Assembly (NCBI GenBank): GCA_963665295.1
Contig: OY762209.1
Location: forward strand, 4,288,001-4,352,000
Length of the DNA: 64,000 nt
Reading direction: 5' to 3'
Origin: Syntrophorhabdaceae bacterium
Lineage (GTDB): Bacteria; Desulfobacterota; Syntrophorhabdia; Syntrophorhabdales; Syntrophorhabdaceae
Shown piece after piece: positions 423-18,432 of the stretch. The notes beneath the pieces are model-generated. The model saw only the letters and a list, made by a program, of their open reading frames with translations, did no database searches and had not been told where the DNA came from. A program made the translations under genes and the position numbers. Each line of letters begins with the position of its first letter. The first letter of the stretch is position 1.

Positions 423-2789
423 ATGTCGGCAGACGATGCAAGACCGTTGACAGAGGGACTTCGTGTGCATCAGACCGGATCACGAGCGCAGTACGAAGGG
501 ACGGGCAAAACGGAGCCCCACGCTTCTCGCGCCCTACCGCTGTCCCGCGTGGGAAGCTGGGAATACGATCTGTCCGCTACAACCGTGCTGTGGTCACCGG
601 AGCTGTTCTCCATCTTCGGGATCGACTCTGATGTCGGGCATCCCACTTACCCGGGCTTTCTCGCGAGAATTCATCCCGACGACAGGGAGACATTTGCAGA
701 GGCGGTCGAGGAAGCCATCACACACAACAAGCCTTTCCGCATCGACCTCAAGCTATTCCGGTCCGACGGCGTCCTGCGCCATATTATCAATCAGGGAAGC
801 ACCCATACCGGCAAAGACGGGAGCGTGGATCGCGTGTTCGGCTCGGTGGAGGATATTACCGAATGGATACAGACCGGGCAAGCCCTCCGGGAGAGCGAAG
901 CGAAGTATAGAAGCATCTTCGAAAACGCGGTCGAGGGCATCTTCCAGGTAACGCCCGAAGGACGCATACTCAGCGGCAACCCCGCAATGGCCCGTATTCT
1001 CGGTTATTCAACCGTTGACGAGATGATGGCGAACGCCGCCGACCTGGGCAAGATCCACATCATACCGGGCAGGGGTGAGGAATTCCCCGGCTTTCTTGAA
1101 AGACACGGAAAGGTAGAGGGTTTCGAAACCCGTTTCCTGAGGAAAGACGGCGTCACCATCTGGGCCATCATCAACGCTCGAACGGTAAAGGACGCAGCAG
1201 GGAAGACCGTGTACTTCGAGGGCTCCATTGAAGACATAACCTACCGGAAGCGGACCGAGGACGCGCTAAGGGAAAGCGAGGAACGTTATAGAGCGATAAT
1301 CGAACATTCCAACGACGGCGTCGCCATCATGTCGGGAGACAATCACGCCTTCGTCAATAAGAGGTTTCTGGAGATCTTCGGCTATGACCGGCCGGCGGAT
1401 GTTGTGGGTAAGCCCCTATCGCTCACCGCACACCACGATGACCGCGAAAGGGTCATAAGGTTTAACCGGCAGAGGCAAAGAAATGAGCCGGTGCCGTCCA
1501 TGTATGAGATGAAAGGGGTAAAGAAAAACGGCGACATCGTCTATGTCGAGGTTTCCGCGACGAATATTACGCTCCACGGGGAGCCTGCTTCCCTCGCCTA
1601 CCTGAGGGATGTGACCGGACGCAAGCAGTGGGGGAAAGAACTGGCCGAGAGTATGGAAAGAATCATACAGGCCAAGCAGGAATGGGAGTCTCTCGCCGAT
1701 TCTCTGAACGAGCTTATTTTCCTCCTCGACAGCAGGGGATATATCATTCGATCAAACCGGAGGATAGAGAACTGGGGACTCGGACATATTACGGACGTCA
1801 AGGGGAGAAGGCTTCATGACACCATGCATCCCTATTGCGCAAAACCTCACTGCTACCTCAGGACCTTCATGGCGAGCGCCCTGAAGGACTCCACCATAGG
1901 ACGCCCCGCCGAGATTGAAGTAAAGGATGACGTTTTGAAGCGCTACCTCGACATCAGGATGCGGCCGATCCCACTCGATATAAAAGCCGGGAGCCAACTG
2001 AGGGAAAGTTTCGCCGTCCTCGTCATCCATGATATTTCCGAACGTAAGAAGGCACAGGAATCGCTCTCGGCGGCCTACGAAGAATTGAAGGAGGCCCAGC
2101 AGGAATTGATCCGGATAGAAAAACTGGCCCTTTTAGGAAAGTTTTCCTCGGGTATAGCCCACGAAATCAGGAACCCCCTTGCGAATATCCGCGCGTCGGC
2201 CCAGTTCTGTCTGAACAAATATGAACTCGATGAAGAAATAAAGAAACACTTGAGGATTATGCTCCGGAACTCCGAACACGCAAACAAGATTATCAAGGAT
2301 TTGATAGACCTTGCAAAACCGAGCGAGGTGTCGCTTGTTCCCGGCAACATAAACCTCGTGGTGAACAAAGTATGTGACCTCGTAAAAACACGGTGCGAGA
2401 AACAGCATGTATTACTCCACAAGAAGATATCGAGAAGGCTCCCCCCTATTCTGATGGACGAAGAACGCATGGAAAAGGCCCTCCTCAATTTTGTCCTGAA
2501 TGCCCTCGATGCTATGCCCAAAGGCGGGAAGCTTGCCATCAACGCTTACCCCTATTTCAACAAACACGAAGTGGTGATAAGCATTCTCGATACAGGAAAG
2601 GGTATAGCGCCGGAACACATGGACAAGATATTCCACCCCTTTTTCACCACCAAGCGTACGGGCATCGGGTTGGGGTTATGCCTCGCCGATCAGGTCATAA
2701 CGTCTCACAAGGGAAGGCTTTCATTTCGCAGCGAACTTGGAGAGGGCACCGCCATCACGGTCAAATTACCCATATCAAGGGAAGGTTGA
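423..2789 (+). CDS. Cytoplasmic multi-PAS sensor histidine kinase (NtrB-like), probable gas-vesicle regulator
   Basis: About four PAS/PAC repeats; H-box GIAHEIRNPL; N-box LNFVLNALDAM; DTGKGI, FHPFFTTK and GIGLGL boxes; no TM helices. Confidence 0.9.
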   Translation: MSADDARPLTEGLRVHQTGSRAQYEGTGKTEPHASRALPLSRVGSWEYDLSATTVLWSPELFSIFGIDSDVGHPTYPGFLARIHPDDRETFAEAVEEAITHNKPFRIDLKLFRSDGVLRHIINQGSTHTGKDGSVDRVFGSVEDITEWIQTGQALRESEAKYRSIFENAVEGIFQVTPEGRILSGNPAMARILGYSTVDEMMANAADLGKIHIIPGRGEEFPGFLERHGKVEGFETRFLRKDGVTIWAIINARTVKDAAGKTVYFEGSIEDITYRKRTEDALRESEERYRAIIEHSNDGVAIMSGDNHAFVNKRFLEIFGYDRPADVVGKPLSLTAHHDDRERVIRFNRQRQRNEPVPSMYEMKGVKKNGDIVYVEVSATNITLHGEPASLAYLRDVTGRKQWGKELAESMERIIQAKQEWESLADSLNELIFLLDSRGYIIRSNRRIENWGLGHITDVKGRRLHDTMHPYCAKPHCYLRTFMASALKDSTIGRPAEIEVKDDVLKRYLDIRMRPIPLDIKAGSQLRESFAVLVIHDISERKKAQESLSAAYEELKEAQQELIRIEKLALLGKFSSGIAHEIRNPLANIRASAQFCLNKYELDEEIKKHLRIMLRNSEHANKIIKDLIDLAKPSEVSLVPGNINLVVNKVCDLVKTRCEKQHVLLHKKISRRLPPILMDEERMEKALLNFVLNALDAMPKGGKLAINAYPYFNKHEVVISILDTGKGIAPEHMDKIFHPFFTTKRTGIGLGLCLADQVITSHKGRLSFRSELGEGTAITVKLPISREG

Positions 2790-2802
2790 GGGAGGGGAGA
2801 AG

Positions 2803-4206
2803 TTGACGGAGAGAATCCTGGTCGTTGAAGACAACAAGGATATGCAGTTTCTTCTTTCCAGCATACTGACGAGCGAGGGATATGAAACGATCGTAGCGGG
2901 CGACGGCGCAAAGGCTCTCCAGGAAGCAAGAAAACGCCTACCCGACGTTGTTCTCCTCGATATACGGTTGCCGGGCATGAACGGCATGGCCGTCCTGGAG
3001 GAGCTTAAAAGGACCAACAAGGACGTCGCGGTCTGCATGCTCACGGCCTATGGGGATATCAAAGGCGCGGTTCAGGCCATGAAGCTGGGAGCCTTCGAAT
3101 ACATTACCAAACCCTTTGACAACGAGGAGCTTCTCATTGTGGTAAAAAGGGCGCTCCGGACCCGGTGCCTCAATAAAGAGGTGGAGTCTCTGAGAAAACA
3201 GTTGGGAGAAAAAACCTCCACCGATCTCATATCCCAACTCGTGGGAGAGAGTCCCGCCATCAAGCAGGTGCTGAAACAGGTCGATGTGGTTGCCCCCACA
3301 AATATGACGGTCGTACTTCAAGGGGAAAGCGGTACAGGGAAGGAACTTATTGCACAGTTGATACACCGGAAGAGCGCGAGAAGGGATGGCGCTTTTGTTG
3401 CCATAGACTGTGGCGCCATACCGGAATCCCTCGTTGAAAGCGAGCTTTTCGGTTACGAAAAAGGCGCATTCACAGGCGCGGATGCCCACAAGAAAGGTAA
3501 ATTCGAGCAGGCCGACGGGGGCGCAATCTTCCTCGATGAGATCACCAACCTTCCCGGCCCTGCTCAGGGAAAATTCCTTCGCGTCTTGCAGGAAAAAAGA
3601 TTGCAGCACCTGGGAGGCAAGAAGGATATAAAGGTTGACGTGCGGATTATAGCCGCTTCCAATATCGACCTTCCTGAGGCAGTCGGCTCGGGCAATTTCA
3701 GGAGCGACCTCTTTCACCGGCTCAACGAATTCCCCGTAAAACTCCCTCCCTTAAGAGAGAGGAAGGAGGACATTCCTTTCCTCGCAAACCGTTTTCTTGA
3801 CGAAGCGAAGGCGGAGTTCAATAAAGATGTACATAGTTTCTCTCCCGAGGCGATGCGGACCCTTCTCGACCATCATTGGCCGGGAAACGTACGGGAGTTG
3901 AGAAACGCCGTAAGAAGAGCGGTGCTCCTCTCGGATTCCATGGTGGTTGCCGAGGTCTACCCCACCCTCGCAGAGCCCGGTCCGGGGATGAACCATCAGT
4001 TGTCGGAAAAGTTGGACGTCCTCGCCCAATTGCGCAAGGGTTACTCCCTCCACGAAATTGCGCAGAAAGAGATCGACGGCTTCGAGAAGGCAATCATCGC
4101 CCAAACCCTGTCCATTACAGGAGGAAACAAAGTCAAAGCTGCGAAAATGCTCAAGATCGACCGTATGACCCTGTATTCGAAACTAAGAAAGTACCAGATC
4201 GAATGA
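2803..4206 (+). CDS. Sigma-54-dependent response regulator (NtrC family: REC-AAA+-Fis HTH)
   Basis: REC (VVLLDIRLP), GESGTGKE, GAFTGA, WPGNVRELRN, C-terminal GNKVKAAKMLKIDRMTLYSKL; TTG start at 2803 after GGAGGGGAG. Confidence 0.93.
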   Translation: MTERILVVEDNKDMQFLLSSILTSEGYETIVAGDGAKALQEARKRLPDVVLLDIRLPGMNGMAVLEELKRTNKDVAVCMLTAYGDIKGAVQAMKLGAFEYITKPFDNEELLIVVKRALRTRCLNKEVESLRKQLGEKTSTDLISQLVGESPAIKQVLKQVDVVAPTNMTVVLQGESGTGKELIAQLIHRKSARRDGAFVAIDCGAIPESLVESELFGYEKGAFTGADAHKKGKFEQADGGAIFLDEITNLPGPAQGKFLRVLQEKRLQHLGGKKDIKVDVRIIAASNIDLPEAVGSGNFRSDLFHRLNEFPVKLPPLRERKEDIPFLANRFLDEAKAEFNKDVHSFSPEAMRTLLDHHWPGNVRELRNAVRRAVLLSDSMVVAEVYPTLAEPGPGMNHQLSEKLDVLAQLRKGYSLHEIAQKEIDGFEKAIIAQTLSITGGNKVKAAKMLKIDRMTLYSKLRKYQIE

Positions 4207-4239
4207 TACCCTGATGAAGCGCGTCTGATTCGACCCCTG

Positions 4240-4415: not shown

Positions 4416-4431
4416 CGGCACGATCTATGCA
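4416..4431 (+). promoter_or_regulatory. Sigma-54 (-24/-12) promoter of the gvp operon
   Basis: CGGCACGATCTATGCA: GG-N10-GC with GGCACG core, directly downstream of a sigma-54 activator gene. Confidence 0.8.
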
Positions 4432-4499
4432 ATTGTAACCGGCATCAGCCACTTATTACTGGGGTTAAAGGCAAAGGCCAATGAGGGCAGTTAACCTGA

Positions 4500-4874: not shown

Positions 4875-4940
4875 GACCGAGCCGGCAGGGTTGACCGTTT
4901 CCCTTCATAAAAAGACGGAATAAAAAAAAGGGGTGCAATC

Positions 4941-5147
4941 ATGGCAGTAGAAAAAGCAATCGGATCATCCAGTTTGGTCGAAGTCGTGGACAGAATCCTC
5001 GACAAGGGAGTAGTCGTCGATGCGTGGGTGAGAGTTTCTCTTGTAGGTATTGAGATTCTTGCCATCGAAGCCAGAGTCGTAGTGGCGTCGGTCGAGACCT
5101 ACCTCAAGTATGCCGAGGCTATCGGCCTGACCGCGACAGCAGCTTAA
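4941..5147 (+). CDS. gvpA: Major gas vesicle shell protein GvpA
   Basis: [60 protein letters not shown] is near-canonical GvpA. Confidence 0.98.
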
Positions 5148-5158
5148 CGCTCCATAAG

Positions 5159-5184
5159 CCGCTGCCCGAGAAGGGCAAAAGCGG
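5159..5184 (+). terminator. Stem-loop downstream of gvpA (partial terminator or mRNA-stabilising hairpin)
   Basis: CCGC-TGCCC-gagaa-GGGCA-aaa-GCGG followed by GTTCTT. Confidence 0.45.
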
Positions 5185-5284
5185 GTTCTTGCCGCGTCAC
5201 CCTCAAGCCTCAACGGCTCATGCCCGGGGGAACGGAAAGTGTGACACGCCAGGAGCCCAAAACCAAGCGTGAGGTAAGCCAAGC

Positions 5285-5959
5285 ATGGAAAACGCCCCCA
5301 ATTTAAAGGGTTTTGTGGATGAAATCATTTCTTCTTACGAAGACCGGCTGCGAAGCATCACCTCCATCATTGACAACACGCGCATGATCCTCGGTGAATT
5401 CCAGGAGTCCATGGCAAACACACGACAAGAAAGAGAAGACATGAAGATCCGGCTCCGGGACACGCTGGCAAAAAATGAGTCCCTCAGAAAGAAAGACTTC
5501 GACGCCATGATGAACACCATTCTCATGTCCCAGGACGACCGGGAGAAGGAAGTGAGAAGCCTGCTCGACAATTTTCTCATGGAGCAGAAAGAGATGACGA
5601 CAACTCTCAGGGAGGGTCTCAGCGGTTCCCGGGACGCCCTGAATCAGGATAATGCAAGCAGGCTCGCGGAATACCATCAGTTGCTGAAGCAAATTCTCGA
5701 TGATCAAGAACAGAGAAGACAGGAAGTTGTCGGCAAATTGAAGACATTCCAGAGGGAACAGAAGGAATTGTCCTACACGCTCGGGCAACTGCTCTCCAAG
5801 GGAAGGCAGCTGAGAATAAAGGATTTGAAATCCATGCTGAAGGGCTTCGAAATGCAGTCCCTGGAGAGGACGACGTACCGGATCAAACGGAAGGAGGACG
5901 TGCAGAGAATGCTTGACGTGTTCCGGCAGGAAAGAGTTGAGAGAAGGCTTTACAAATAA
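5285..5959 (+). CDS. Alpha-helical/coiled-coil protein, GvpC-like paralogue 1
   Basis: All-helical charged sequence; N-terminal LKGFVDEIISSYEDR resembles the N-termini of 5985 and 7194; lies between gvpA and gvpN. Confidence 0.55.
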   Translation: MENAPNLKGFVDEIISSYEDRLRSITSIIDNTRMILGEFQESMANTRQEREDMKIRLRDTLAKNESLRKKDFDAMMNTILMSQDDREKEVRSLLDNFLMEQKEMTTTLREGLSGSRDALNQDNASRLAEYHQLLKQILDDQEQRRQEVVGKLKTFQREQKELSYTLGQLLSKGRQLRIKDLKSMLKGFEMQSLERTTYRIKRKEDVQRMLDVFRQERVERRLYK

Positions 5960-5984
5960 AAGGCGTAGAGAAGAGGAGGTACAT

Positions 5985-7097: not shown

Positions 7098-7193
7098 GCC
7101 GGGAGCCCTTGAGAGACACGAGCGCCGGGACACGGACTGAAGACGCGTGCGATCCCGGCCCTCAAAGAACAGTATTTCGGGAGGAGGTTTAGC

Positions 7194-7526
7194 ATGGACG
7201 ACATATCCGGTGGTATGAGAAATCTATCCGACGACATTCTCACGAGCCACAGGGACAGAAAAGAAACGATAAAGAATCTGAAGACGGAATCTGATGCCAT
7301 CAGGAAAGATACGGCGCAATTTCTGGACCAATCCAGAAGACTGCGCGACGAAATGAGCAAGAGTCTCAGAGCAAACCTCAGGCAGGAAAGAGATCGCCTT
7401 CTCCAGGAAGTAACCACCATGAGGGATGATTTCAGAAGCAATGAAAGAAGGATCAGGGAGGACCTCGCGGAGGCCAAGCGGATCTGGACCGACATGAAGA
7501 ACATTTTGGGAGGAAAACCAAAATGA
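7194..7526 (+). CDS. Short GvpC-like paralogue 3
   Basis: Shares N-cap GM(K/R)xL(A/S)DxIL(A/T)SH..R and C-cap REDxxEAKxxW(S/T)(E/D)M with 5985; strong GGAGGAGG RBS. Confidence 0.65.
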   Translation: MDDISGGMRNLSDDILTSHRDRKETIKNLKTESDAIRKDTAQFLDQSRRLRDEMSKSLRANLRQERDRLLQEVTTMRDDFRSNERRIREDLAEAKRIWTDMKNILGGKPK

Positions 7527-8440
7527 TTGATGACAACACGACGATATTACAACCGACGGCCCTGCCCGACTTTGTGGAAACGAACTACATCAAGGAACTT
7601 ACCGAAAGGTCGATTGCCTATGTGCGGGCAGGTTTCCCGGTCCACTTCAGGGGCATATCAGGCACCGGAAAAACGACCCTCGCCATGCACGTGGCAAGCA
7701 AGATCGGCAGGCCTGTCGTCCTCATCCATGGAGACGAAGAATTTACCACTTCGAACCTCGTGGGGGGCGAATACGGTTACAGGATGAAAAAAGTGGTGGA
7801 CCGCTTCGTATCACGGGTACTCAAGACAGAGGAAGATATGGTCAAGCGCTGGGTTGATAACCGTCTCACGGTGGCGTGCAAATATGGTTTCACCCTCATT
7901 TACGACGAATTCACGCGGTCCCGCCCGGAGGCGAACAATATCCTTCTCTCCATACTTCAGGAACGGCTTATGGACCTGCCTGTCGGACGGGAGGCGGAAG
8001 GGCCGTATCTCAAGGTGCATGAGAACTTTACCGCCTTTTTCACGAGTAACCCTGAGGAATATGCCGGCGTACACAGAAGTCAGGACGCCTTGAGAGACCG
8101 GATGGTGACCATGGACCTCGATCACTTCGACTACGAAACAGAGGTTGCCATCACGCAGGCAAAATCGAAGCTCCCCCGCAAAGAAGTGGAAAGCATCGTC
8201 AAAATCGTGAGGGGGTTAAGGGAATCCGGCAAGTGCGAGTTTACCCCCACCGTCAGGGCGTGCATTATGATTGCCAAGACCATGAAGGTCGAAGGTATCA
8301 CGACGCGTAATTCCAACGGCTCTTTCAGCAGGATGTGTCAGGACGTGTTGGCCTCGGTCACAAGCAGAGTAGGTTCCAAGACAAATCAGACGAGGGTGAA
8401 GGAGATAGTCGAAGGTTTGGTAAAGACACATGTAAACTGA
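7523..8440 (+). CDS. gvpN: Gas vesicle AAA+ ATPase GvpN
   Basis: GFPVHFRGISGTGKTTLA, WVDNRLTVAC, YDEFTRSRPEANN, TSNPEEYAGVH.SQDALRDR. Confidence 0.96.
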   Translation: MIDDNTTILQPTALPDFVETNYIKELTERSIAYVRAGFPVHFRGISGTGKTTLAMHVASKIGRPVVLIHGDEEFTTSNLVGGEYGYRMKKVVDRFVSRVLKTEEDMVKRWVDNRLTVACKYGFTLIYDEFTRSRPEANNILLSILQERLMDLPVGREAEGPYLKVHENFTAFFTSNPEEYAGVHRSQDALRDRMVTMDLDHFDYETEVAITQAKSKLPRKEVESIVKIVRGLRESGKCEFTPTVRACIMIAKTMKVEGITTRNSNGSFSRMCQDVLASVTSRVGSKTNQTRVKEIVEGLVKTHVN

Positions 8441-8517
8441 AATCGGGAATTATCATACCTGTTCCGAGAAGACACATCCCGGGGGAAACGGGGCATTTGA
8501 CGCGGGAGGCCTTATAA

Positions 8518-8823
8518 ATGAAAGACCTGAAGGAAATCGCAACCATCAAGAACATAAGGAGCATGCATTCCATCGGCGCACGGTCCGTTCCGAAAGTCCA
8601 AAGGTCTCCTTATCTTGACCTCTATTCACTCAACAGGGAAAAAGACCGGTTGGAAAAAGAGGTCAAAGTGCTCGAAAAGAGAAAAACAATTACAGGCCGC
8701 ATGCTGAGCGATGTAATCAGACTCATTGCCGGGCTCCAAAAAGAGATCCGGGGCAGAACGGAGGTAAAGACCGTTAAGGATACCAAGATGAAACGCCTGA
8801 GAACGATGCCCATCCGATACTGA
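8518..8823 (+). CDS. gvpV: GvpV-like small basic coiled-coil protein
   Basis: YLDLYSLNREKDRLEKE motif and terminal Tyr resemble GvpV from memory; sits directly after gvpN. Confidence 0.55.
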   Translation: MKDLKEIATIKNIRSMHSIGARSVPKVQRSPYLDLYSLNREKDRLEKEVKVLEKRKTITGRMLSDVIRLIAGLQKEIRGRTEVKTVKDTKMKRLRTMPIRY

Positions 8824-8957
8824 GTCCCATGGGTGATGCGCGGCGGGCGGCATGGGTTCTCGCCTTGCCCGACAGTGGTCGGATATCACCGTCAGCCCCT
8901 CGGTAATATGAGGGCTCTCGATTAAAGAGAGAAATACGTGCAAAAGGGGAGAAGAAG

Positions 8958-9494
8958 ATGCCGACACATAAGAGCAGCAAGAAGGATGGCGACGCGTTCA
9001 ATATCGATGTGGGGCTCGGGAACCTGGGGTTGGGCGGAATCTTCAAGGGTATTGAAAAGCTGGTGGACCTCGCGTCGGAGTTGGAGAAGGCAGGAGGAGA
9101 GATAAAAAAGGAAGGCGATATAGACCTGAGCAACCTCAAGGAGGGCATGAAGGGTGTTTTCGGTTTCTCCGTGAAGACGGCCATGGGCGGAAGACCTGTA
9201 GTAGAACCCTTCGGGAATGTGCGAAAAACCCCCCAGGGGGCCAAAGTTGAAGAAGAAAGGGAACCCATAACCGACGTTTTCGATGAGAAGGACGAGATCC
9301 GGGTGTATCTGGAAATGCCGGGAATCAGCAAGAACGATGTAAAGATTGATCTCAAAGGGGACATACTCACTATTTCAGCTCAAAGCGGGAACAAGAAATA
9401 CCGTAAGGAAATTCTGCTTCCTGCGAAAGGAAAATCGGAGACACTTACATCCGGCTTTAAGAACGGCATTCTGGAAATAAGAATAAAGAAATGA
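8958..9494 (+). CDS. Small heat-shock protein (Hsp20/alpha-crystallin), GvpH-like
   Basis: REPITDVFDEKDEIRVYLEMPGI...FKNGILEIRI alpha-crystallin domain; long Gly/Phe-rich N-terminus. Confidence 0.88.
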   Translation: MPTHKSSKKDGDAFNIDVGLGNLGLGGIFKGIEKLVDLASELEKAGGEIKKEGDIDLSNLKEGMKGVFGFSVKTAMGGRPVVEPFGNVRKTPQGAKVEEEREPITDVFDEKDEIRVYLEMPGISKNDVKIDLKGDILTISAQSGNKKYRKEILLPAKGKSETLTSGFKNGILEIRIKK

Positions 9495-9506
9495 GTGGGA
9501 CCCCTG

Positions 9507-10445
9507 ATGGGACTAACCGGACTAAAGGACGCGCCTTTGAAACTGATTCTATTCGGCGGCAAGGGTGGTGTGGGGAAAACGACCTGCGCGGTCAGCGCGG
9601 GTTTATGCCTGGCTGAAGAGTTCAGCACCCTTATCGTCTCCACCGACCCCGCTCATTCCCTTTCGGACAGTTTGGAGCAGAAGTTCGGCGATGAGGTCAC
9701 CGCCGTTCTGAACGTGAAGAACTTGAGCGTCATAGAAATAAGTGCAAAAAAGGTGTTCTGCGCGTTCAAGGAAAAGCACGAGCAGGAGATAAGGAAGATT
9801 ATCGACACCTCCACGTATCTGGACCAGGAAGACACAGAGGCGGTTTTGAACCTCCCTATCCCCGGCATTGATGAGGTAATGGGCCTGAAGGTAATAATGG
9901 ACCTCTTGGAAGAAGGGCGGTTTGACAAGGTCGTGGTCGATATGGCCCCCACCGGCCATGCACTTCGTCTCCTGAAAGTACCGGCATTGCTTGACGACTG
10001 GATTAAGGTCGTGGCGAAACTCAGATGGAAGTATCGCTATATGATAACAACCTTCGCAGGCAAATACACGCCTGATGAAGGAGATGATTTCCTTCTTGAA
10101 ATGAAGAAGACCATCACCCGGATACATACGCTCTTCACGGACAGGAAACAGTGTGAATTCATCATGGTTACCATACCCGAAGCCATGGCGGTCCGCGAAA
10201 CGGAAAGGTTGATTAAGGAGTTGGGCTCATGTGGGATAGCGATCCGCCAGATAGCGGTCAACAACGTTACGCCCGAAAGCGAGAATTGCCGATTCTGCAT
10301 GGACAGACGGGAGCGACAGGAAGAATATATCGATTATCTGGAAAACCGCATGGGCAACGTCCGGACAACGGTCCTTCCTATGCAGTCGCGGGAAGTAAAA
10401 GGCCTGGCTGCACTAACAGGTTTTAAAGAATTGCTCTTTCAGTAG
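9507..10445 (+). CDS. Single-domain ArsA/GET3/TRC40-family ATPase (start 9495 or 9507)
   Basis: GGKGGVGKTT, STDPAHSLSD, PGIDE, DMAPTGH, C-terminal CRFC. Confidence 0.92.
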   Translation: MGLTGLKDAPLKLILFGGKGGVGKTTCAVSAGLCLAEEFSTLIVSTDPAHSLSDSLEQKFGDEVTAVLNVKNLSVIEISAKKVFCAFKEKHEQEIRKIIDTSTYLDQEDTEAVLNLPIPGIDEVMGLKVIMDLLEEGRFDKVVVDMAPTGHALRLLKVPALLDDWIKVVAKLRWKYRYMITTFAGKYTPDEGDDFLLEMKKTITRIHTLFTDRKQCEFIMVTIPEAMAVRETERLIKELGSCGIAIRQIAVNNVTPESENCRFCMDRRERQEEYIDYLENRMGNVRTTVLPMQSREVKGLAALTGFKELLFQ

Positions 10446-10496
10446 CTCAGAGTAGGCAGCAATTTAGGGGTATGCTCCAAGAATGAGGTGATCCGA

Positions 10497-12722
10497 ATGA
10501 AGGATAGCAAGAAAGAGCCTGCCATGGCTTTCAAAGTGAAAGAAGCCCTGCCTAAAGATGTGGGCAGAGCCATCGCGCGGATCGATCCTGACGATATGAA
10601 GGTCCTCGGCCTTGACGTGGGCGACATAGTGGAACTCTACGCCAAGAGAAAGGCCCCCGTGAGGATAATGCCCTGCTACGTTGAAGAGAGGGGAAAGCGG
10701 ATCATCCAGATGGATGGAATCGCCCGGGAAAATGCAAAGGTCGGCCTGGACGAAAAGGTGAAGATAAGACGGGCCACGCCCAAATCGGCGACACGAGTAA
10801 CCCTTGCGCCCTTGACCCTTTCGACCCTGGCCCAAAAAGGAAAGGATCAACGGTATATAGGGACGCTTATCGAAGGCCTGCCCGTCATCACCGGGGACCG
10901 GGTGCGGGTTACCCTCTTCGGCTCACGGTCAAGCGATTTCAAAGTTCTGGGCACGACACCCGATGGGGTGGTGGTGATAAATCCGGAGACGCAGATAAGA
11001 ATCGAATCGAAGGAGGCCGGCGAGACAAAGACCACGAAGGTTTCCTATGAAGATATAGGCGGCCTCGGTTATCAGATCCAGAGAATCAGGGAGATGATCG
11101 AACTCCCCTTGAAATATCCTCAGATATTCGAACGGCTCGGGATCGATCCCCCCAAAGGGGTGCTGCTCTATGGCCCCCCCGGAACGGGGAAGACCCTGAT
11201 CGCACGGGCGGTGACGAACGAGACGGACGCTTATTTCACCAACATCAGCGGACCTGAGATCATGGGTAAGTTTTACGGCGAGAGTGAAGGACGTTTGAGA
11301 AGTATATTTGAAGAAGCCCAGAAGAATACACCCGCCATCATATTCATCGACGAAATAGACGCCATCGCGCCCAAGAGAGAGGAAATGGGCGGCGAGAAGC
11401 AGGTTGAACGGCGCGTGGTAGCCCAACTCCTTTCGCTTCTCGATGGACTGCAGTCAAGGGGACAGGTCATCGTCATAGGGGCGACAAACATTCCGAATAC
11501 TCTCGATCCTGCCCTGAGGAGACCGGGGAGATTCGACAGAGAGATCGCGGTCCCTATTCCCGACAAGAACGGAAGGCTCCACATACTGCAAATCCATACA
11601 AGAGGCATGCCTCTTGCGGGAGAAGCTCAACAGGGAAACGGCGAGATATCAACCGGGGTTGATATCGATAAACTTGCGGAAATTACTCACGGTTTTGTGG
11701 GAGCGGACCTGGAAGCCCTGGCCCGGGAGGCCGCCATGTCGGCCCTCAGGAAGGTGTTGCCGAAGATCGACTTCACCATTGACGAAGTGCCTTATGACAC
11801 CCTTCTCAGCCTCGAAGTCACCATGGATGACTTTATGGAAGCAATGAAAGAGGTGGAGCCTTCGGCCATCAGAGAGGTATTCGTCGAGGTACCCGACGTG
11901 CGATGGGACGACGTGGGAGGCCTTGAGGGTGTCAAGCAGGAGTTAAAAGAAGCCGTTGAGTGGCCCATTAAATATGCCGACGTCTTCAAGGCAGTGAACA
12001 CTCATCCGGCAAAGGGGATTCTCCTTCATGGGGCCCCCGGCACCGGAAAAACCTTGCTTGCAAAAGCAGTCGCAAGCGAGACAAAGGTCAACTTCATTTC
12101 TGTAAAAGGTCCGGCCCTCATCTCCAAATTCATCGGCGAAAGCGAGAAGGGGGTTCGGGAGGTGTTTAAAACCGCAAAGCAAGCGTCCCCATCCATCATA
12201 TTTTTCGACGAGATAGATGCGGTTGCACCGAGGAGGGGCTCAGGTATCGGAGAATCGAATGTAACCGAGAGGGTGGTGAGCCAATTCCTCGCTGAAATGG
12301 ACGGTATCGAGGAACTCAAGGGAGTTGTGGTATTGGCGGCCACCAATCGGCTCGACATCATCGATCCCGCCCTTCTCAGGGGGGGCAGGTTTGATGTTAT
12401 TATCGAGCTCCCGCTACCCGACGAAGACGCGCGCTTCTCAATATTCCAAATTCATGCAAGCCGAAAACCCCTTGCTTCGGATGTGAATCTACGTGATTTT
12501 GCGAAGAAGACGGATGGCCTCGCAGGGTCGGACATAGAATTCCTGTGCCGGAAGGCCTCCATGCTCGCAATAAGGGAATTCATAAATCAGGCAGCCGGGG
12601 CCGGCAAGAAGAAAGGCGCATCAAAAGATAAGGCCGGTCTTAAGGTAGGCAAAAAGCACTTCGAAGAGGCTTTGGAGGTGGTGAGGCGTCAGAGGGCATC
12701 AGTCGATGAGGCAGACTTGTGA
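10497..12722 (+). CDS. CDC48/p97/VAT-family double-ring AAA+ ATPase
   Basis: N domain ([11 protein letters not shown]); D1 [35 protein letters not shown]2 [31 protein letters not shown] 10497 after GAGGTG. Confidence 0.95.
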
Positions 12723-12781
12723 CGACAAGCCGCAAAGGTGACTCCGCCGAAGTCCGACCTGAACGGGGGGATTGAGTTAAC

Positions 12782-12834
12782 GGGCCGGTCTCCGAGTGCG
12801 TCGCACGGGGGGTGCGGCAGCGGGAGACCGGCCC
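12782..12834. repeat. Intergenic 12-bp inverted repeat / long hairpin
   Basis: GGGCCGGTCTCC ... GGAGACCGGCCC with inner GTCGCAC/GTGCGGC stem. Confidence 0.6.
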
Positions 12835-12883
12835 CGGGGGTTGGCCGCATCGGCAAAGACAGAGAAAGGACCGGGGGGAATTT

Positions 12884-13906
12884 ATGAGCGGTATGGGCAA
12901 ATATATGTATGGTGTGATCAACTCCGACTGCCGCGGGGAAAGTTCAAAGGTCCCGGCCTCTCACGGCATGGTCTATACGATCCCTTATAAGGGCGTGTCC
13001 GCCGTGGTGAGCGACGCTGAGATGGTCGAGTACGCGAAGATGCCCGGGGACACTGCCGCACGGCACCTTGTCAATCACCAACTCGTACTCGAAAGGATGA
13101 TGAAGGACCACAACACCATTCCCATAAAATTGGGGACTTACCTGCTCAACGAGGGGGAAGTGACCCAAGCCCTGGCAAGGGGACATGGGGTGTTTCAGAA
13201 AGTCTTCAAAGAGATCGAAGGAAGGGTGGAGTTTAACGTCGTAGCGACATGGACCGATCTCAATACGATCATAAGAGAGGTCTCCAGGGACAAAGAAATA
13301 ACCGCGCTAAAGGAGGCTCTCCTCACCAACGCACAAGGGATAACCGTCGATGCCCAGATAAAGATCGGTATACTCATCAGAAACCATTTGAATACAATGA
13401 AAGCCGGATACTCAGGCGCCATACTGGATGCCCTGGAAGGTCTCGCCGAGAGGGCGAAGGATTACACCACGCCGGATGACGCGACCATCATGAACGCCGC
13501 CCTGCTTCTCGCAAGGGACGCCGAACCTCAATTCGACGAAAAACTCGAGGAACTGAGCGTCAGGTTTGAAGGGAAAGTCCACTTCAAGGTCATAGGACCC
13601 CTTCCCCCATACAACTTCTATACCCTTGAGATAAAAAAATTCCAGTTCGACGAGATCGATTGTGCGAGAAGGAAACTCGGTCTCCCGGACTTTGCAGTCA
13701 GGGACGATATCAAGAAAGCGTACAGGAAATATGCCTTTGACTGCCATCCGGACAGACAGAGCGAGAAGTGGAAAGCGGAGATGGAGTACGATGAAGCCGC
13801 CAAAGCGTATAAATTGCTCACCGAATACTGCCAGGACGACGCATGCTCCTTCAGGGCAGACGATTTCTTTAATAACTCCATAGCCATAAAGCTAAAGGGG
13901 CAGTAA
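12884..13906 (+). CDS. GvpL/GvpF-family protein fused to a C-terminal DnaJ J-domain
   Basis: KYMYGVI...HQLVLE...IPIKLGT...GPLPPYNF (GvpL/F), then LGL...IKKAYRKYAFDCHPD...AAKAYKLL (J-domain with HPD). Confidence 0.88.
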   Translation: MSGMGKYMYGVINSDCRGESSKVPASHGMVYTIPYKGVSAVVSDAEMVEYAKMPGDTAARHLVNHQLVLERMMKDHNTIPIKLGTYLLNEGEVTQALARGHGVFQKVFKEIEGRVEFNVVATWTDLNTIIREVSRDKEITALKEALLTNAQGITVDAQIKIGILIRNHLNTMKAGYSGAILDALEGLAERAKDYTTPDDATIMNAALLLARDAEPQFDEKLEELSVRFEGKVHFKVIGPLPPYNFYTLEIKKFQFDEIDCARRKLGLPDFAVRDDIKKAYRKYAFDCHPDRQSEKWKAEMEYDEAAKAYKLLTEYCQDDACSFRADDFFNNSIAIKLKGQ

Positions 13907-14673
13907 TGGAAAGAGAAGCCAAGTATATCTATTGCATCATCGGCGCGACACAGGACAGAACCTTCGGCCCTATCGGCCTTGGAGACAGGGGAGATGAGGT
14001 ATGCACCATCGGCATTGATGACCTTGCGATGGTGATAAGCAACCATCCGTTGACCAGACTTGTAGTCAATCGGGAGAATATTCTGGCCCACGAGAAGGTC
14101 ATCGAGGAGGTAATGAAGGAGTATGTCGTATTGCCCGTTCGGTTCTGCACCATTGCCACGGGAGCGGACGAGATAAGGAGCCTTCTGTCGAGGAGGTACC
14201 GCGAATTCAAGAACCTCCTGAAGGATATGGACCACAAGGTTGAACTCGGCGTGAAGGGCCTGTGGAGGGATATGAACGCCATCTTCAAAGAAATCACCGC
14301 GGAGAACAGCGAAATAGGCAAGATGAAAAGAAGATTGAAAGGAGACAAGGAGCAGAAACACATGGAGGCAAAGGTGGAACTCGGCAAGCTCGTTCAGGAT
14401 GCCCTCAAGCGCAAGAAGGACGAGGAGGCCGAAAAGGTGGTTGATGCGTTAAGGGCATCGGCCTTCGACTACACCCTCAATCACACTGCAGGTGATGAAA
14501 TGTTCATGAACGCTTCTTTTCTGGTGAGCAAGGGGCGGGAAAAGGAATTCGACAACATCATGGACGATCTGGGCGAAAAGTACAAGGGGAGGACTCGTTT
14601 TCTCTATGCGGGACCGTTGCCTCCTTACAACTTCGTGAATATTACGATACGCCAGGAAGAGTGGGAAAAGTGA
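13906..14673 (+). CDS. gvpF: GvpF/GvpL-family gas vesicle protein
   Basis: KYIYCII, AHEKVIEEVM, VLPVRFCT, VELGVKG, GPLPPYNFVNI. Confidence 0.9.
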   Translation: MEREAKYIYCIIGATQDRTFGPIGLGDRGDEVCTIGIDDLAMVISNHPLTRLVVNRENILAHEKVIEEVMKEYVVLPVRFCTIATGADEIRSLLSRRYREFKNLLKDMDHKVELGVKGLWRDMNAIFKEITAENSEIGKMKRRLKGDKEQKHMEAKVELGKLVQDALKRKKDEEAEKVVDALRASAFDYTLNHTAGDEMFMNASFLVSKGREKEFDNIMDDLGEKYKGRTRFLYAGPLPPYNFVNITIRQEEWEK

Positions 14674-14700
14674 AAGAAAGAACGACGCTGGGGAGGTTCC

Positions 14701-15471
14701 ATGGAAGAAGGGCTCTATATATATTGCATAGTTGAATCAAAGGAGCCCTGCTCCTTTGATATCGAGGGCATCGGAGGCAGGGGCGACAAGGTGTACACCG
14801 TATCGCTCGATCATATCGGCGCGGTAGTGAGCGCGTCTCCTGTCAAAAGATACTCGGTGGCGCGGGAGTACCTGATGGCCCATGAGCGGGTCATTGAAGA
14901 GGTCATGAAGACCCATACGGTCCTCCCCGTGAGGTTTGCCACTATTACGGAGAGCGAAGAGAAGATAAGAATGATCCTCGGGCGAGAGTATGCCCGTTTT
15001 GCAGGCCTCCTTAAACAGATGGCAGACAAGAAGGAGTTGGGGCTGAAGATGTTGTTCAAAGAGGATATGGTATACGGGGAACTCCTTGAAAAGTATGGCG
15101 ACGTAAAGACTCTGAAACAAAAAATAGAATCCCTTCCCGCCGAAAAATCATATCACCAGAGAATGGAGATAGGCCGCATGGTCGAGGCAGCGCTCCGGCG
15201 GGAGAAAGAATTCTACCGTGAATATGCCCTGAACAGACTGGCGCCCCTGTCCGTCGAGGTAAAGACAAACAAGGAATACGGAGACATGATGATCGTCAAC
15301 GCCTCATTTCTCGTGGTGAAAGAAAAGGAAAGGGAGTTTGACCTTGCAGTGCAGGAACTCGCAGACAAATGCGGGGATATGGTGAGGCTCAAATATGTGG
15401 GAACCCTACCGCCCTTCAACTTCGTGAATATTGTGATCAACACGGATGGAGGAAGCCAATGTTCATTATAG
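14701..15471 (+). CDS. gvpF: GvpF/GvpL-family gas vesicle protein
   Basis: LYIYCIV, AHERVIEEVM, VLPVRFAT, GTLPPFNFVNI; overlaps gvpG as in typical gvpFG pairs. Confidence 0.9.
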   Translation: MEEGLYIYCIVESKEPCSFDIEGIGGRGDKVYTVSLDHIGAVVSASPVKRYSVAREYLMAHERVIEEVMKTHTVLPVRFATITESEEKIRMILGREYARFAGLLKQMADKKELGLKMLFKEDMVYGELLEKYGDVKTLKQKIESLPAEKSYHQRMEIGRMVEAALRREKEFYREYALNRLAPLSVEVKTNKEYGDMMIVNASFLVVKEKEREFDLAVQELADKCGDMVRLKYVGTLPPFNFVNIVINTDGGSQCSL

Positions 15472-15698
15472 ACGACATACTCCTCTCGCCGTTAAGAGGT
15501 TTCATATGGTTGGGTGAGAAGATAAACGATGTGGTGGAGAGGGAGTTGTCCGACGAGGGGCTCATAAAGGAGCGCCTTATGGAACTGCAACTGCGTTTCG
15601 AATTGGATGCCATAGATGAGGAGACTTACACGAAACAGGAAAAAGTGCTCCTCGAGAGACTTAATGCGATCCACGGGGAAGGAGAGGAGGAGGTATAA
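15459..15698 (+). CDS. gvpG: Gas vesicle protein GvpG
   Basis: MFIIDDILLSPLRGFIWLGEKI...LMELQLRFELDAIDEE...EKVLLERL; ATG 15459 after GGAGG. Confidence 0.9.
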   Translation: MFIIDDILLSPLRGFIWLGEKINDVVERELSDEGLIKERLMELQLRFELDAIDEETYTKQEKVLLERLNAIHGEGEEEV

Positions 15699-15699
15699 A

Positions 15700-15963
15700 A
15701 TGGCGGATATCCAGGAAGCTACTCAGGCGCTTTGCGGGTTTTTGAAAAAGACTCTTTCAGTCGAAGATGCCAAAGCGATAAAGGTGTGTCATACACCTCA
15801 GGGATGGGAAGGGGACATCGAGGTGTATGAAGACAGCTCCTTCATCAAAACCATCGGGCTGCCGACACGGGTAAAAGACAGGAATATCTATAACGTAAAG
15901 GCAGACGAAAACCTGGAGGTTCAGGCGTATGAACGAAAACCCGCGAACCAGCCCCGGGAGTGA
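15700..15963 (+). CDS. gvpO: GvpO/GvpR-family gas vesicle protein
   Basis: GWEGDIEVYE...IYNVKADENLEVQAYER pattern of GvpO/R. Confidence 0.75.
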   Translation: MADIQEATQALCGFLKKTLSVEDAKAIKVCHTPQGWEGDIEVYEDSSFIKTIGLPTRVKDRNIYNVKADENLEVQAYERKPANQPRE

Positions 15964-15969
15964 CGGAAA

Positions 15970-16818
15970 ATGACGGGCCTGTATCTTTACTGCGTCCGGG
16001 GAGAGACCCGGAATCCTTTGCCCTTTCATGAAAGGGGAATCGACGGAAGAAGTGAGGTCTTTACAGTGGCCCATCGGGCGTTGGAGGCGGTCGTGAGCGA
16101 CGTTTCATTGCGGGAATTCACTTCCGAAGAGATACAAAGGCGAGCTGGAGAAGACCCGGGCTGGATAAAAGAACGTGCGGTGATTCATGAGCGGGTAATC
16201 GAGAACGCGATGAGAGGGGTTGATGAGCCGGTGAGCGTAATCCCCATGAGATTCGGTGTCATTTTCAAGACCATGGCGAACTTGAAGGCAAGACTGGATA
16301 AGGATTACTGCCGAATGAAGACCGTGCTGGCCAAAATAGACGGTAAGGAAGAGTGGAGCGTAAAGGCATACATGAAAGACAAGGAAAGGTTTGACGCCGT
16401 GGCGAGGGCAAGAAACCCCGGGATTACCGCAAAGGAGAGGCAAATCGCGTCCCTGCCCGAAGGTGTAGCCTACTTCATGGAAGAAGAGTTGAAAGAGGTT
16501 GTGGATGATGCGATAGAGAATGAACTGGCGGCCATACTGGAAGGTTCATTCGAGAGGTTGTCGGGGGAAGCGACGGAGTCCGTCAAAACAAGGGTCCTCG
16601 AAAAGGAGGTTACAGGAAGAACCGAGCAGATGGTTTTTAATTCCGCTTTCCTCGTCCGTCAGGACAAGGCGGACAGGTTCCACCACACCCTCGGAATGAT
16701 CGCCGGGGAATTTGAGGCAAAAGGACTCTGCGTTGAATTGACCGGGCCGTGGCCCGCCTTCAATTTCTGTCGGGAAAACGTCGCTACCGGAGAAAAGAGG
16801 GAAGATGAATCACACTAA
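15970..16818 (+). CDS. gvpL: GvpL/GvpF-family gas vesicle protein (GvpL/W-like)
   Basis: LYLYCV, HERVIE, VIPMRFG, GKEEWSVK, TGPWPAFNF. Confidence 0.85.
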   Translation: MTGLYLYCVRGETRNPLPFHERGIDGRSEVFTVAHRALEAVVSDVSLREFTSEEIQRRAGEDPGWIKERAVIHERVIENAMRGVDEPVSVIPMRFGVIFKTMANLKARLDKDYCRMKTVLAKIDGKEEWSVKAYMKDKERFDAVARARNPGITAKERQIASLPEGVAYFMEEELKEVVDDAIENELAAILEGSFERLSGEATESVKTRVLEKEVTGRTEQMVFNSAFLVRQDKADRFHHTLGMIAGEFEAKGLCVELTGPWPAFNFCRENVATGEKREDESH

Positions 16819-17335
16819 GAACGCGGCTCTCGTAGATGTGCTGGACAAGGTACTGGAAAAAGGCGCCGTTATCAGCGGCGACATGATGATAAGGGTGGCC
16901 GACGTGGACTTGGTATTCGTGGGTCTCAGGGTCTTTCTCGCTTCAGTCTCCAAAGCCCGGGAATTGTCCGGGGAAACCGGTTTTGACCAGGAAAGGGAAC
17001 CGACACCCGAGGATATTGCCTTCATGGAAAGGCTACAAAAGGAGATAAGAAAGGCCGAAGAAAATATCCCAAAGCTTATGAATGCGGACAATCCGAGAGA
17101 GACGGAGCAGGGCCTTGCCCGATTGATCCTGGCCATCATTGAACTCATAAGAAAATTGATGGAAAAGGAGGCCTTCAGAAGGGTCCGGAGCGGGACGATC
17201 GCTCCGGTGGAGATACAGAAACTCGGGCTGAGTCTGAAAGCGGTGAGGAAGAAGATGATGGAAATCCAGGCAATCTTCGGAATCAAGGACGAAGACCTCA
17301 AACTAAACCTTGGTCCCCTTGGCGATTTAACATAA
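16805..17335 (+). CDS. gvpK: Fusion of a GvpA/J/S-like domain and GvpK
   Basis: N-half LVDVLDKVLEKGAVISGD...VADVDL..VGLRVFLASV; C-half EQGLARLILAIIELIRKLMEKEA.RR...LGLSL...LNLGPLG. Confidence 0.88.
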   Translation: MNHTKNAALVDVLDKVLEKGAVISGDMMIRVADVDLVFVGLRVFLASVSKARELSGETGFDQEREPTPEDIAFMERLQKEIRKAEENIPKLMNADNPRETEQGLARLILAIIELIRKLMEKEAFRRVRSGTIAPVEIQKLGLSLKAVRKKMMEIQAIFGIKDEDLKLNLGPLGDLT

Positions 17336-17345
17336 GGAGAGTCCT

Positions 17346-17651
17346 ATGGCAGAACAACAGATGGTCCATGCGATACAGGCAACGAATCTGGCGGACATCC
17401 TGGAAAGGGTGCTGGACAAGGGGATTGTAATCGCGGGCGACATACAAATCAAGATTGCGGATATTGAACTCCTGACCATCAAGATAAGGCTTCTCATTGC
17501 GTCTGTGGACAAAGCCATGGAGATGGGGATCAACTGGTGGCAGCAGGACCCATACCTGTCCGACGGCAAAAAGGCAAAGGCAAAGGAAGAGGATAACGCG
17601 GCCTTAAGAAAACGGGTCAAGCTGCTGGAGGAGAAGATAAACCGCATGTAA
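17346..17651 (+). CDS. gvpJ: Gas vesicle protein GvpJ
   Basis: NLADILERVLDKGIVIAGDI.IKIADIELLTIKIRLLIASVDKAMEMGINWW. Confidence 0.95.
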   Translation: MAEQQMVHAIQATNLADILERVLDKGIVIAGDIQIKIADIELLTIKIRLLIASVDKAMEMGINWWQQDPYLSDGKKAKAKEEDNAALRKRVKLLEEKINRM

Positions 17652-17673: not shown

Positions 17674-18432
17674 GTGTTCCGTGAGGCGGGCAACACGGGA
17701 GGGGAAAAGATCATAGACAACTATGAACGCAGGCTTCTTTACGTTCCCATCATTCATACCGAGGCCGATCTGGGCTCCATGGGAGGGACGGTCGCAAAGA
17801 GCGGGCGCAGGCAGTTCGGGGACGCATTCTGGGATAGCCATGAAGAAACGGTCCGTGGTTTCTGGGATGCCCTTGCGAGATATTTTGATTCCATCGAGGT
17901 AGAGGGGTTCAAGGTATTTCAGGACGGCATGGTCGCCGAAGGCGACATGGGAAGGAAGATAGTTGAGGAAGTGCTCAAAACAGGGAGCAAAAACTACGAG
18001 CTTCTCGCAAGATTGCTCCATCGGGGAAGTATCCTGGTGAGAACCGAGGATATCGATCTTGTCAAAGAGGAACATAGATTACTCTCGGACATAGCCCACT
18101 CCAGGACGAAACCCGAAAGACTGCATGCCGCGCAGAAATACGAGCTATTGAAAAACAAGCTTCTTGACAGAAGAGACCGGTTTATCGCGGGAAGGATCGA
18201 TTGGACGCTGGGCAAGGGCGAAACGGGCATACTCTTTATCGGAGCATATCATAACGTAAAGGCCCATCTTCCGTCCGATGTCCGGGTGATTGAGATTAAA
18301 GACGCCGGCAGGGTGATGCAGTATCAGCGACTCCTGCCCGTGCACAACGCGCACAAGAAGCACTTTCAGGAACTTCGCCGGTACCTTACGGCCGAAGTGG
18401 AAACCATGGGAGAAGATATGAAAGGGACATAG
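17674..18432 (+). CDS. Hypothetical protein at end of gvp operon, TraB/Tiki-like C-terminal motif (start uncertain)
   Basis: 252-aa ORF; YVPIIH..D.GS near N-terminus; RRDRFIAGRI...GILFIGAYH. Confidence 0.6.
   Translation: MFREAGNTGGEKIIDNYERRLLYVPIIHTEADLGSMGGTVAKSGRRQFGDAFWDSHEETVRGFWDALARYFDSIEVEGFKVFQDGMVAEGDMGRKIVEEVLKTGSKNYELLARLLHRGSILVRTEDIDLVKEEHRLLSDIAHSRTKPERLHAAQKYELLKNKLLDRRDRFIAGRIDWTLGKGETGILFIGAYHNVKAHLPSDVRVIEIKDAGRVMQYQRLLPVHNAHKKHFQELRRYLTAEVETMGEDMKGT

Follow-up and report, generated by a model that had tools for sequence, protein, structure and literature searches.

A 64,000-nucleotide stretch of the genome of a Syntrophorhabdaceae bacterium (GenBank assembly GCA_963665295.1, contig OY762209.1, positions 4,288,001 to 4,352,000; the whole of it is called the window here) carries a gas vesicle protein (gvp) operon, within which lie four genes that are probably co-transcribed and act as an accessory kit of chaperones for the highly hydrophobic shell subunits GvpA and GvpJ. 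As the first-pass annotation had stated, the four open reading frames (ORFs) are co-oriented on the + strand between gvpV and gvpF. They encode a small heat-shock protein (sHsp), probably of the GvpH type (8958..9494), a single-domain Get3/TRC40-like ATPase (9495..10445), a Cdc48/VAT-family double-ring AAA+ ATPase with the domain order N-D1-D2 that is a probable GvpZ (10488..12722), and GvpF-J, which consists, in this order, of a GvpF/L domain, a J-domain and a short beta/alpha tail (12884..13906). The hsp20 and arsA genes abut (0 bp), arsA and cdc48 are separated by 42 bp and cdc48 and gvpF-J by 161 bp (counted to the ATG at 12884), and gvpF-J overlaps the downstream gvpF by 1 bp. The GvpL/F domain and HPD-bearing J-domain claimed earlier for the fourth gene are present, but its start is most likely not the GTG at 12812 but the ATG at 12884, giving a 340-residue product, because a purine-rich run lies just upstream of this ATG and the database copy has 340 aa. 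The GC content of the block, overall and at third codon positions (GC3), equals that of the neighbouring genes, so there is no sign of a recent separate insertion, and the recurrence of the arrangement in many phyla places it far beyond chance.

Linkage to gas vesicle genes, which the first-pass annotation had put forward for survey, was scored at the best 80 of 475 confirmed Cdc48 relatives, and gvp genes were present at 69 of these 80 loci. The remaining 11 were six short contigs that still carried hsp20, arsA or a conserved cluster ORF, and five Synergistota loci. In a sample of 300 genomes of the phylum, 20 had gvpN (17 over the cut-off and 3 partial), and Cdc48 (E ≤ 1e-100) was encoded by 19 of these 20 compared with 15 of the 280 without gvpN, the related genomes in these counts not being independent. 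In the single gvpN-positive genome without Cdc48 (G155), the cluster is cut by the contig end directly after arsA. None of the seven sampled genomes of the same family had gvpN over the cut-off or Cdc48, so the distribution of the gvp cluster is patchy.

GvpF-J was also used as a starting point. A metagenome scan with the single protein as query found nothing and a region search found only nine proteins, while a closer alignment used as query gave 287 loci, of which 80 were kept. Cdc48 was encoded directly upstream of GvpF-J at 62 of the 66 metagenome loci with at least 300 bp upstream, and all four parts were found at 25 of the 35 with at least 5 kb upstream. Among 42 long gvp-linked Cdc48 loci, Hsp20 preceded Cdc48 in 39 and GvpF-J was present in 36; ArsA was adjacent in 19, present anywhere in 23 and absent from 19. 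When genomes were sampled by gvpN, another cluster type (type II) emerged, with the order hsp20-cdc48-gvpF-gvpF, no J-domain and sometimes a tandem ArsA elsewhere; of the 20 gvpN-positive genomes, only 8 proved to have a J-fused GvpF. Methylosinus and Methylocella have Hsp20 and Cdc48, with no ArsA within the stretches shown. The near-universal core is sHsp plus Cdc48, the Get3-like ATPase and GvpF-J being optional. The fixed four-part module first proposed is not what the survey shows: all four parts occur in 19/42 long loci (seven named phyla), ArsA is optional and clusters of the Serratia order lack the J fusion. The trees, suggested earlier as a test for gvp-specific clades, place Cdc48 (support 99), single-domain ArsA (98) and J-fused GvpF (99/98) each in a gvp-associated group.

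GvpF-J suggests a tie between the operon and Hsp70. The protein matched GvpL/F (PF06386) with 172.9 bits and DnaJ (PF00226) with 40.1 bits (cut-off 27.8), with the HPD motif intact. Its predicted fold (predicted local distance difference test score 93, predicted template modelling (TM) score 0.84) consists of a GvpF domain at residues ~4–250 and a canonical J-domain, the helices of which are encoded at 13646..13828 (+), with HPD at 13745-13753. The J-domain is in register with that of E. coli DnaJ, having HPD between helices II and III and a basic helix II, and the model lies within a root-mean-square deviation of 1.0–2.0 Å of most solved J-domains listed. The N-terminal 250 residues resemble GvpF/GvpL of Anabaena (6L5D) and Microcystis (4QSG) (Foldseek E 4e-17, target TM 0.81); GvpF-J differs from these proteins in its C-terminal J-domain and short tail, and falls in a separate clade. 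HPD was present in 52/52 complete GvpF-J proteins from the Cdc48-ascertained set, whose 53rd row (L013) is a non-J GvpL/F paralogue and was left out, and in 75/75 complete metagenome proteins. It was present also in 140/143 full-length 50%-cluster representatives, a set biased by a search profile that included HPD; the HPD invariance of one alignment (A1), pre-filtered for the motif, was left uncounted. GvpF-J occurs in 17 named phyla across 53 loci. On the GvpF domain alone the J-fused proteins form one clade (support 100; 99/98 once Octadecabacter is included), so that one fusion event is the simplest reading. The Octadecabacter member is encoded on a plasmid of the cultured gas-vacuolate type strain O. 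arcticus 238 (L294:9280-10362, OA238_RS28000), retains HPD and is annotated only as GvpL/GvpF family. Octadecabacter is known to be gas-vacuolate, and passages of the paper on it describe its gvp cluster without a J-domain (PMC3646047).

A search of 183 loci with the host DnaK as query gave 11 matches. Ten of them are paralogues that lie within gvp clusters or at their ends, in the same orientation as the cluster genes and in every case at a locus with GvpF-J; the eleventh is an opposite-strand housekeeping copy. Seven of the cluster copies are full length (L007:19704-21494, L024:19156-20994, L027, L047, L116, L119:13645-15477 and L129:568-2493); they are 43–50% identical to housekeeping DnaK, keep the ATPase motifs and form one clade (99), and the other three are cut (L023, L026 and L070). 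In L129, dnaK starts where gvpF-J stops. Of the linked loci that were ascertained by Cdc48 and have at least 9 kb downstream, 7/30 with the J-domain and 0/3 without it carry a cluster DnaK, numbers too few for a test. No DnaK is encoded in the window's own gvp cluster, and a canonical DnaK is encoded elsewhere in the host genome. The J-domain had been read earlier as a sign of Hsp70 involvement, and the conserved HPD and the ten cluster-encoded, co-oriented DnaKs agree with this: they suggest a part for Hsp70 in the assembly or the recycling of gas vesicles. GvpF-J is predicted to stimulate the ATPase of its cognate Hsp70. GvpF itself is described as the primary, chaperone-like partner of GvpA (PMC11445434). 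Complex prediction for GvpF-J with GvpA, run with alignments, scored 0.25 against a mark of 0.32, which is evidence neither way.

Some of these related clusters hold further unusual ORFs. The L024 cluster, which has GvpF-J and DnaK, also contains an ORF with a DnaJ-type zinc finger (CXXCXGXG; L024:14594-15370). Long proteins (357–379 aa) with a GvpA/GvpJ domain are encoded upstream of the cluster dnaK in L007:18626-19765, L026:10934-12073 and L070:18910-19983, and the extensions of two of these three gave weak GRAM/PH-like matches.

The Cdc48 of the window contains CDC48_N (PF02359), CDC48_2 (PF02933) and two AAA domains (PF00004), and scored 951 bits with TIGR01243 (cut-off 803). In 81 Cdc48 rows searched with fixed patterns, two Walker A motifs were found in 81 and two Walker B motifs in 77, the D1 and D2 pore loops in 73 and 69, and the Arg fingers in 81 and 72. 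Among solved structures, the Cdc48 of the window comes closest to VAT and p97, the best Protein Data Bank match being VAT 5G4F at 751 bits, and it shares with both the domain order, the Walker motifs, the Arg fingers and the aromatic pore loops. The window protein is accordingly predicted from its motifs to be a hexameric, ATP-driven unfoldase. It differs from VAT and p97 in lacking an HbYX-like C-terminal end, which was found in 0/81 rows, in its host, which apparently has HslV in place of the 20S proteasome, and in being encoded within an organelle operon. The single PF00227 match in the host genome is one that we take to be HslV, and not a 20S subunit, by its N-terminal motif. A Cdc48 that feeds a proteasome was rejected on these grounds. 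The closest relatives (82%) come from Syntrophorhabdales-type genomes. In trees, the type-I Cdc48s form a clade (99 by the Shimodaira–Hasegawa-like approximate likelihood ratio test) and the type-II Cdc48s a separate one (99). The second tree (IQ-TREE) was built from 40 of 69 rows, a wrong-frame ORF (L157) having been dropped along with 28 others, these for size.

The Get3-like ATPase scored 253.7 bits with TIGR00345 (cut-off 135) and has a single ArsA_ATPase domain (PF02374). It contains the motifs GKGGVGKT, DPAH and PTGH, a CxxC (CRFC) that is kept in 35/36 single-domain ArsA-family rows, and a long hydrophobic insert. The helical insert region comprises 73 residues, while the corresponding regions in the halves of an ars-operon ArsA have 59 and 47; hydrophobic groove columns are conserved at 156–214, and Leu118 occupies the position of Cys115 in that ArsA. 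The protein scored 184–142 bits to archaeal (3UG6, 3ZQ6) and yeast Get3/TRC40, compared with 117 to E. coli ArsA (1F48), and shares with the former the single SIMIBI domain, switches I and II, CxxC, helical insert and groove residues. What sets it apart from them is that it is encoded in a gas vesicle operon, and any delivery of tail-anchored proteins to a Get1/Get2-type membrane receptor would be putative here. When the tree was redone with gvp-unlinked rows included, the single-domain gvp ArsAs formed one clade (98), apart from the two other ArsA paralogues of the host genome, and in the 300-genome sample the best ArsA matches were in gvp clusters, ahead of an unlinked paralogue found family-wide. 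An identity as arsenic-efflux ArsA was rejected on the single domain, the Leu at the Cys115 position and the gvp context, and no ars gene was among the ORFs annotated in window positions 1–24.5 kb. In a Nostoc sphaeroides plasmid (L182:5983-9766), the genes after a gvp cluster encode a tandem ArsA-family ATPase that lacks CxxC and a further AAA ATPase.

The small heat-shock protein matched HSP20 (PF00011) with 35 bits and the archaeal Hsp20 model NF041800 with 134.7 bits, slightly below the cut-off of 140, and did not match Pfam GvpH (PF05455) at E ≤ 0.001. Its best plasmid homologue (35% identity) is annotated gvpH and does match PF05455, and it is 41% identical to the Hsp20 that occupies the gvpH position in a Serratia-order cluster. 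Haloarchaeal GvpH binds GvpM directly and keeps it soluble (PMC4390858), and hsp20 near gvp genes is in print (PMC7325909).

Transcription signals suggest that the block is transcribed with the gvp operon. A sigma54-type −24/−12 promoter-like site (4416..4430, +; two mismatches to the consensus) lies upstream of a response-regulator gene and gvpA. A motif of this type was found within 800 bp upstream of gvpA in 17/37 relatives, where 0.25 were expected from shuffling. None was found ahead of hsp20 (0/60), arsA (0/35) or gvpF-J (0/59), and ahead of cdc48 there was no excess (1/77, 0.9 expected). A sigma70 promoter search likewise gave no excess (7, with 10.2 expected), and no terminator-like site was found on the + strand from 4200 to 15481. 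These results agree with the claim that the block is inside the operon; the simplest reading is one long gvp transcript, which would start at the sigma54-type site. The site is preceded by genes for a PAS histidine kinase (423-2789) and an NtrC-type, GvrA-like sigma54 activator (2737..4206, +; identified by family search), and followed by one (4500-4874) whose product is a single-domain response regulator. In locus L113, too, genes of these three types are linked to gvp genes.

The gas vesicle cluster of Serratia (PMC4982088) has a similar organisation: an sHsp gene, then a very probable Cdc48 (in the window after ArsA), then GvpF paralogues, with regulators of the same types (gvrA/B/C in Serratia; PAS kinase, NtrC-type activator and response regulator in the window). 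The window differs in that the block is inside the gvpA operon and adds the Get3-like ATPase and, on the first GvpF, the J-domain; in type-II clusters, which have the Serratia order, Cdc48 belongs to its own clade and the GvpFs beside it have no J-domain. GvpZ is described in the Serratia work as a protein of unknown function (PMC4982088). Locus L113 has the order sigma54-activating response regulator, Hsp20, Cdc48, F, F, PAS histidine kinase, response regulator, matching the Serratia genes. Moreover, VRWEDV, the motif at the start of D2 in Cdc48, is encoded by gvpZ_3F, the published primer for the 3′ junction of the gvpZ deletion. The encoded peptide scored 23.3 bits at position 471 of the Cdc48 profile, a score reached by 0/150 shuffles, and at most 8.3 bits on five other profiles. 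Of the flanking primers, gvpF2_5F maps 7 residues beyond gvpZ_3F on the same profile (7/150 shuffles) and gvpH_3R maps within D1, non-significantly (36/150). Because of this gene order and the gvpZ_3F peptide, GvpZ of Serratia is very probably Cdc48. The published deletion probably fuses the start of the gene to that of D2, so that some 260 residues remain, and the allele may therefore not be null. Neither gvpZ nor cdc48 was found in the supplements of PMC11778176 and PMC5601083, and no Serratia record was among the best 30 of 51 matches in a plasmid search.

We propose the following division of labour, in which the clients and the order of steps are drawn from knowledge of the families. Like ordinary GvpF, the GvpF domain of GvpF-J would bind newly made subunits of the GvpA family, which DnaK, triggered by the HPD of the J-domain, would then load or release; this DnaK would be the housekeeping copy in this host and a cluster-encoded paralogue in some relatives. 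A dimer of the Get3-like ATPase may shield hydrophobic helices in an ATP-gated groove, while the sHsp would capture off-pathway aggregates. From these the Cdc48 hexamer would extract trapped subunits by threading them through its pore, for refolding or hand-off and not for a 20S proteasome. Shell-protein expression is proteotoxic (PMC12848028), and the kit would raise vesicle yield or quality, or limit toxicity; vesicles can probably form without it.

Several observations weigh against a kit dedicated to vesicles. Deletions of gvpH and gvpZ in Serratia still make vesicles, the genes being outside the required set, and the gvpH deletion is reported to leave vesicle shape and stability unchanged (PMC4982088). 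In E. coli at 37 °C the ultrasound signal was 45–51 dB for the wild type, 34–50 dB without gvpZ, 38–48 dB without gvpH and 5–14 dB for the green fluorescent protein control (Hurt et al. 2023; PMC10344784). The outcome that the first-pass annotation had named as refuting, no vesicle phenotype in deletions, is thus seen in part: vesicles stay intact in Serratia, and the signal in E. coli is only modestly lower. The Octadecabacter arcticus cluster has Hsp20 and GvpF-J and neither Cdc48 nor ArsA, and haloarchaeal Hsp20-Cdc48 pairs (Halobacterium, Natrinema) have no gvp gene within 2–3 kb. Five Synergistota Cdc48s (L063, L066, L077, L078 and L080) are nested inside the type-I gvp clade at loci without gvp genes, and GvpA was not found in the four of these genomes that were searched with the protein, the host genome serving as positive control; therefore the enzyme can serve without vesicles, these copies having probably been retained after loss of the gvp cluster. 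Finally, the sister relation of the type-I and type-II Cdc48s had SH-like support of 94 in FastTree and was unresolved in IQ-TREE.

Some of these points would also suit general damage control, in which a recruited sHsp-Cdc48 stress pair, with the Get3-like holdase, protects the cell proteome during massive shell-protein synthesis, makes no specific Gvp contacts and leaves only GvpF-J specific to vesicles. The haloarchaeal pairs, the Synergistota Cdc48s, the mild deletion phenotypes and the best score of the window Hsp20, which is with an archaeal Hsp20 model, all agree with it. We consider it unlikely: heat-shock motifs are not enriched before hsp20 (sigma32-like 1/81; controlling inverted repeat of chaperone expression, CIRCE, 0/81), all parts fall in gvp-associated clades, a GvpF paralogue follows Cdc48 in both cluster types, and haloarchaeal GvpH does contact a Gvp protein, GvpM, directly (PMC4390858). 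The intact AAA rings, pore loops and Arg fingers, with VAT and p97 as the closest structures, could also serve organelle turnover, Cdc48 pulling GvpA from mature or collapsed vesicles, with GvpF-J/DnaK as adaptor, to recycle subunits or end buoyancy. With such a role, the continued formation of vesicles in the deletion strains would be explained, and J-proteins with Hsp70 disassemble coats in other systems, as auxilin does. The single sigma54-type site before gvpA, with none before the block, suggests co-expression with the synthesis genes, and GvpF acts early (PMC11445434), so that turnover as the main role appears decidedly improbable. A bolder combination, which we hold to be doubtful, is that GvpF-J, DnaK (in some lineages the cluster-encoded paralogue) and Cdc48/GvpZ work together as a bi-chaperone machine specific to the organelle, able both to feed and to dismantle the shell and allowing ATP-driven recycling of collapsed vesicles or a buoyancy off-switch in anaerobic bacteria; the published gvpZ deletion would have missed this role, as it scored formation only and probably kept D2 in frame.

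The presence of all four parts in 19/42 long loci and 25/35 metagenome loci might be taken for an obligate four-part pathway equivalent to the eukaryotic network of guided entry of tail-anchored proteins (GET), p97 and Hsp70. This is very unlikely, with ArsA absent from 19 of the 42 and adjacent in 19 only, the J fusion confined to 8/20 gvpN-positive genomes, no HbYX and no 20S subunit found in the host genome, and mild deletion phenotypes. The analogy with that network, drawn in the first-pass annotation, is a loose one: HbYX is lacking in 81/81 Cdc48s, and the only PF00227 match is HslV-like. Least probable, to the point of being hardly credible, is that the ATPase is an arsenic-efflux ArsA or a vesicle-unrelated membrane-insertion GET factor riding along in the operon. 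The family name of PF02374 points that way, as do the single transmembrane segments predicted in GvpG and GvpM (Castillo & Saier, PMC2963123); the single domain, CxxC, 73-residue insert (59 and 47 in an ars-operon ArsA), Leu at the Cys115 position, lack of an annotated ars gene in window positions 1–24.5 kb and own clade in gvp clusters argue against it. The accessory chaperone kit for GvpA/GvpJ is thus the reading that we prefer.

Half of the block has been noted before. Castillo & Saier (2010; PMC2963123) described homologues of ArsA, together with hsp20, from gvp clusters of four phyla that also encode several GvpF/L paralogues; the carriers are Bacteroidetes/Chlorobi, Geobacter, cyanobacteria and Acidobacteria. 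They proposed that the ATPase energises a step in biogenesis and that Hsp20 acts as a chaperone. Their ArsAs are two-domain proteins (~600 aa), whereas the window ATPase is single-domain and in a separate clade, and the text of that paper contains 0 occurrences of Cdc48 and DnaJ. No description of a gvp-linked Cdc48 as such, of the Get3 reading or of the J fusion was found in open-access full text; subscription papers, among them the one that first described the Serratia cluster, lie outside that scope, and the GvpZ tree figure of PMC4982088 or later supplementary files of PMC10344784 may already name the GvpZ family. The earlier supposition that the four-part module was undescribed thus stands for GvpF-J, of which no description was found, and falls for Hsp20 with ArsA, published in 2010, and for Hsp20 with Cdc48, very probably the GvpH-GvpZ of Serratia. 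GvpF-J with its occasional dedicated DnaK, and the identity of GvpZ as a Cdc48, appear to be the new parts.

The remaining gas vesicle genes of the window, all on the + strand, surround the block. gvpA, the major shell protein and presumed client, lies at 4941..5147 (NF006874, 130 bits; cut-off 100), and gvpN, an AAA+ ATPase, at 7523..8440 (TIGR02640, 329.5 bits; cut-off 266.8). It is followed by a small basic ORF at 8518..8823 that has no family match and is called gvpV-like from its position after gvpN. Between gvpA and gvpN, at the gvpC position (5285-7526), are three related helical ORFs of 224, 394 and 110 aa with no Pfam GvpC match, the 110-aa ORF resembling part of the 394-aa ORF. Downstream of the block, family searches identified gvpF, gvpF, gvpG, a gvpO-like gene, gvpL, a gvpJ-K fusion and gvpJ/S (13906..17651), the first gvpF (13906-14673) directly following gvpF-J. 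In the fusion (16805-17335) a GvpJ-type domain and GvpK share one ORF; they are separate genes in many relatives. A conserved unnamed gvp-cluster gene follows at 17674..18432. Its 252-aa product is kept in both cluster types, with a sub-threshold TraB/GumN hint and otherwise only unnamed Atlas clusters as matches, and its homologues sometimes lie beside Cdc48 or between Hsp20 and Cdc48 (L016, L021, L293); it is possibly a fifth member of the chaperone kit. About 3 kb past the gvp cluster, on the − strand (21212-24486), a papain-family protease with a built-in chagasin inhibitor domain is encoded beside an RpoH-like sigma factor gene. In the host genome (one contig, 98% complete), no gvp cluster besides this one and no further full Cdc48 were found.

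The block exists and is conserved; it has no fixed make-up, has been published in part and is probably accessory. It touches two open issues, namely how insoluble GvpA stays on pathway and whether vesicles are ever actively dismantled. The finding is tempered because half of the block was already in print and because deletions of the Serratia counterparts are mild; Hsp20, the Get3-like ATPase and Cdc48 all have an earlier name or mention in print, and they seem to assist rather than to be indispensable. GvpF-J offers a direct genetic handle on the involvement of Hsp70, also in the cultured carrier Octadecabacter arcticus 238. The reading of GvpZ as Cdc48 gives a testable mechanism to an orphan gene of a model system and widely used acoustic reporter, and flags a published deletion as possibly non-null. 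In E. coli, many gvp clusters do not work or prove toxic (PMC10344784, PMC12848028), and a portable chaperone kit could therefore matter for the engineering of acoustic reporters.

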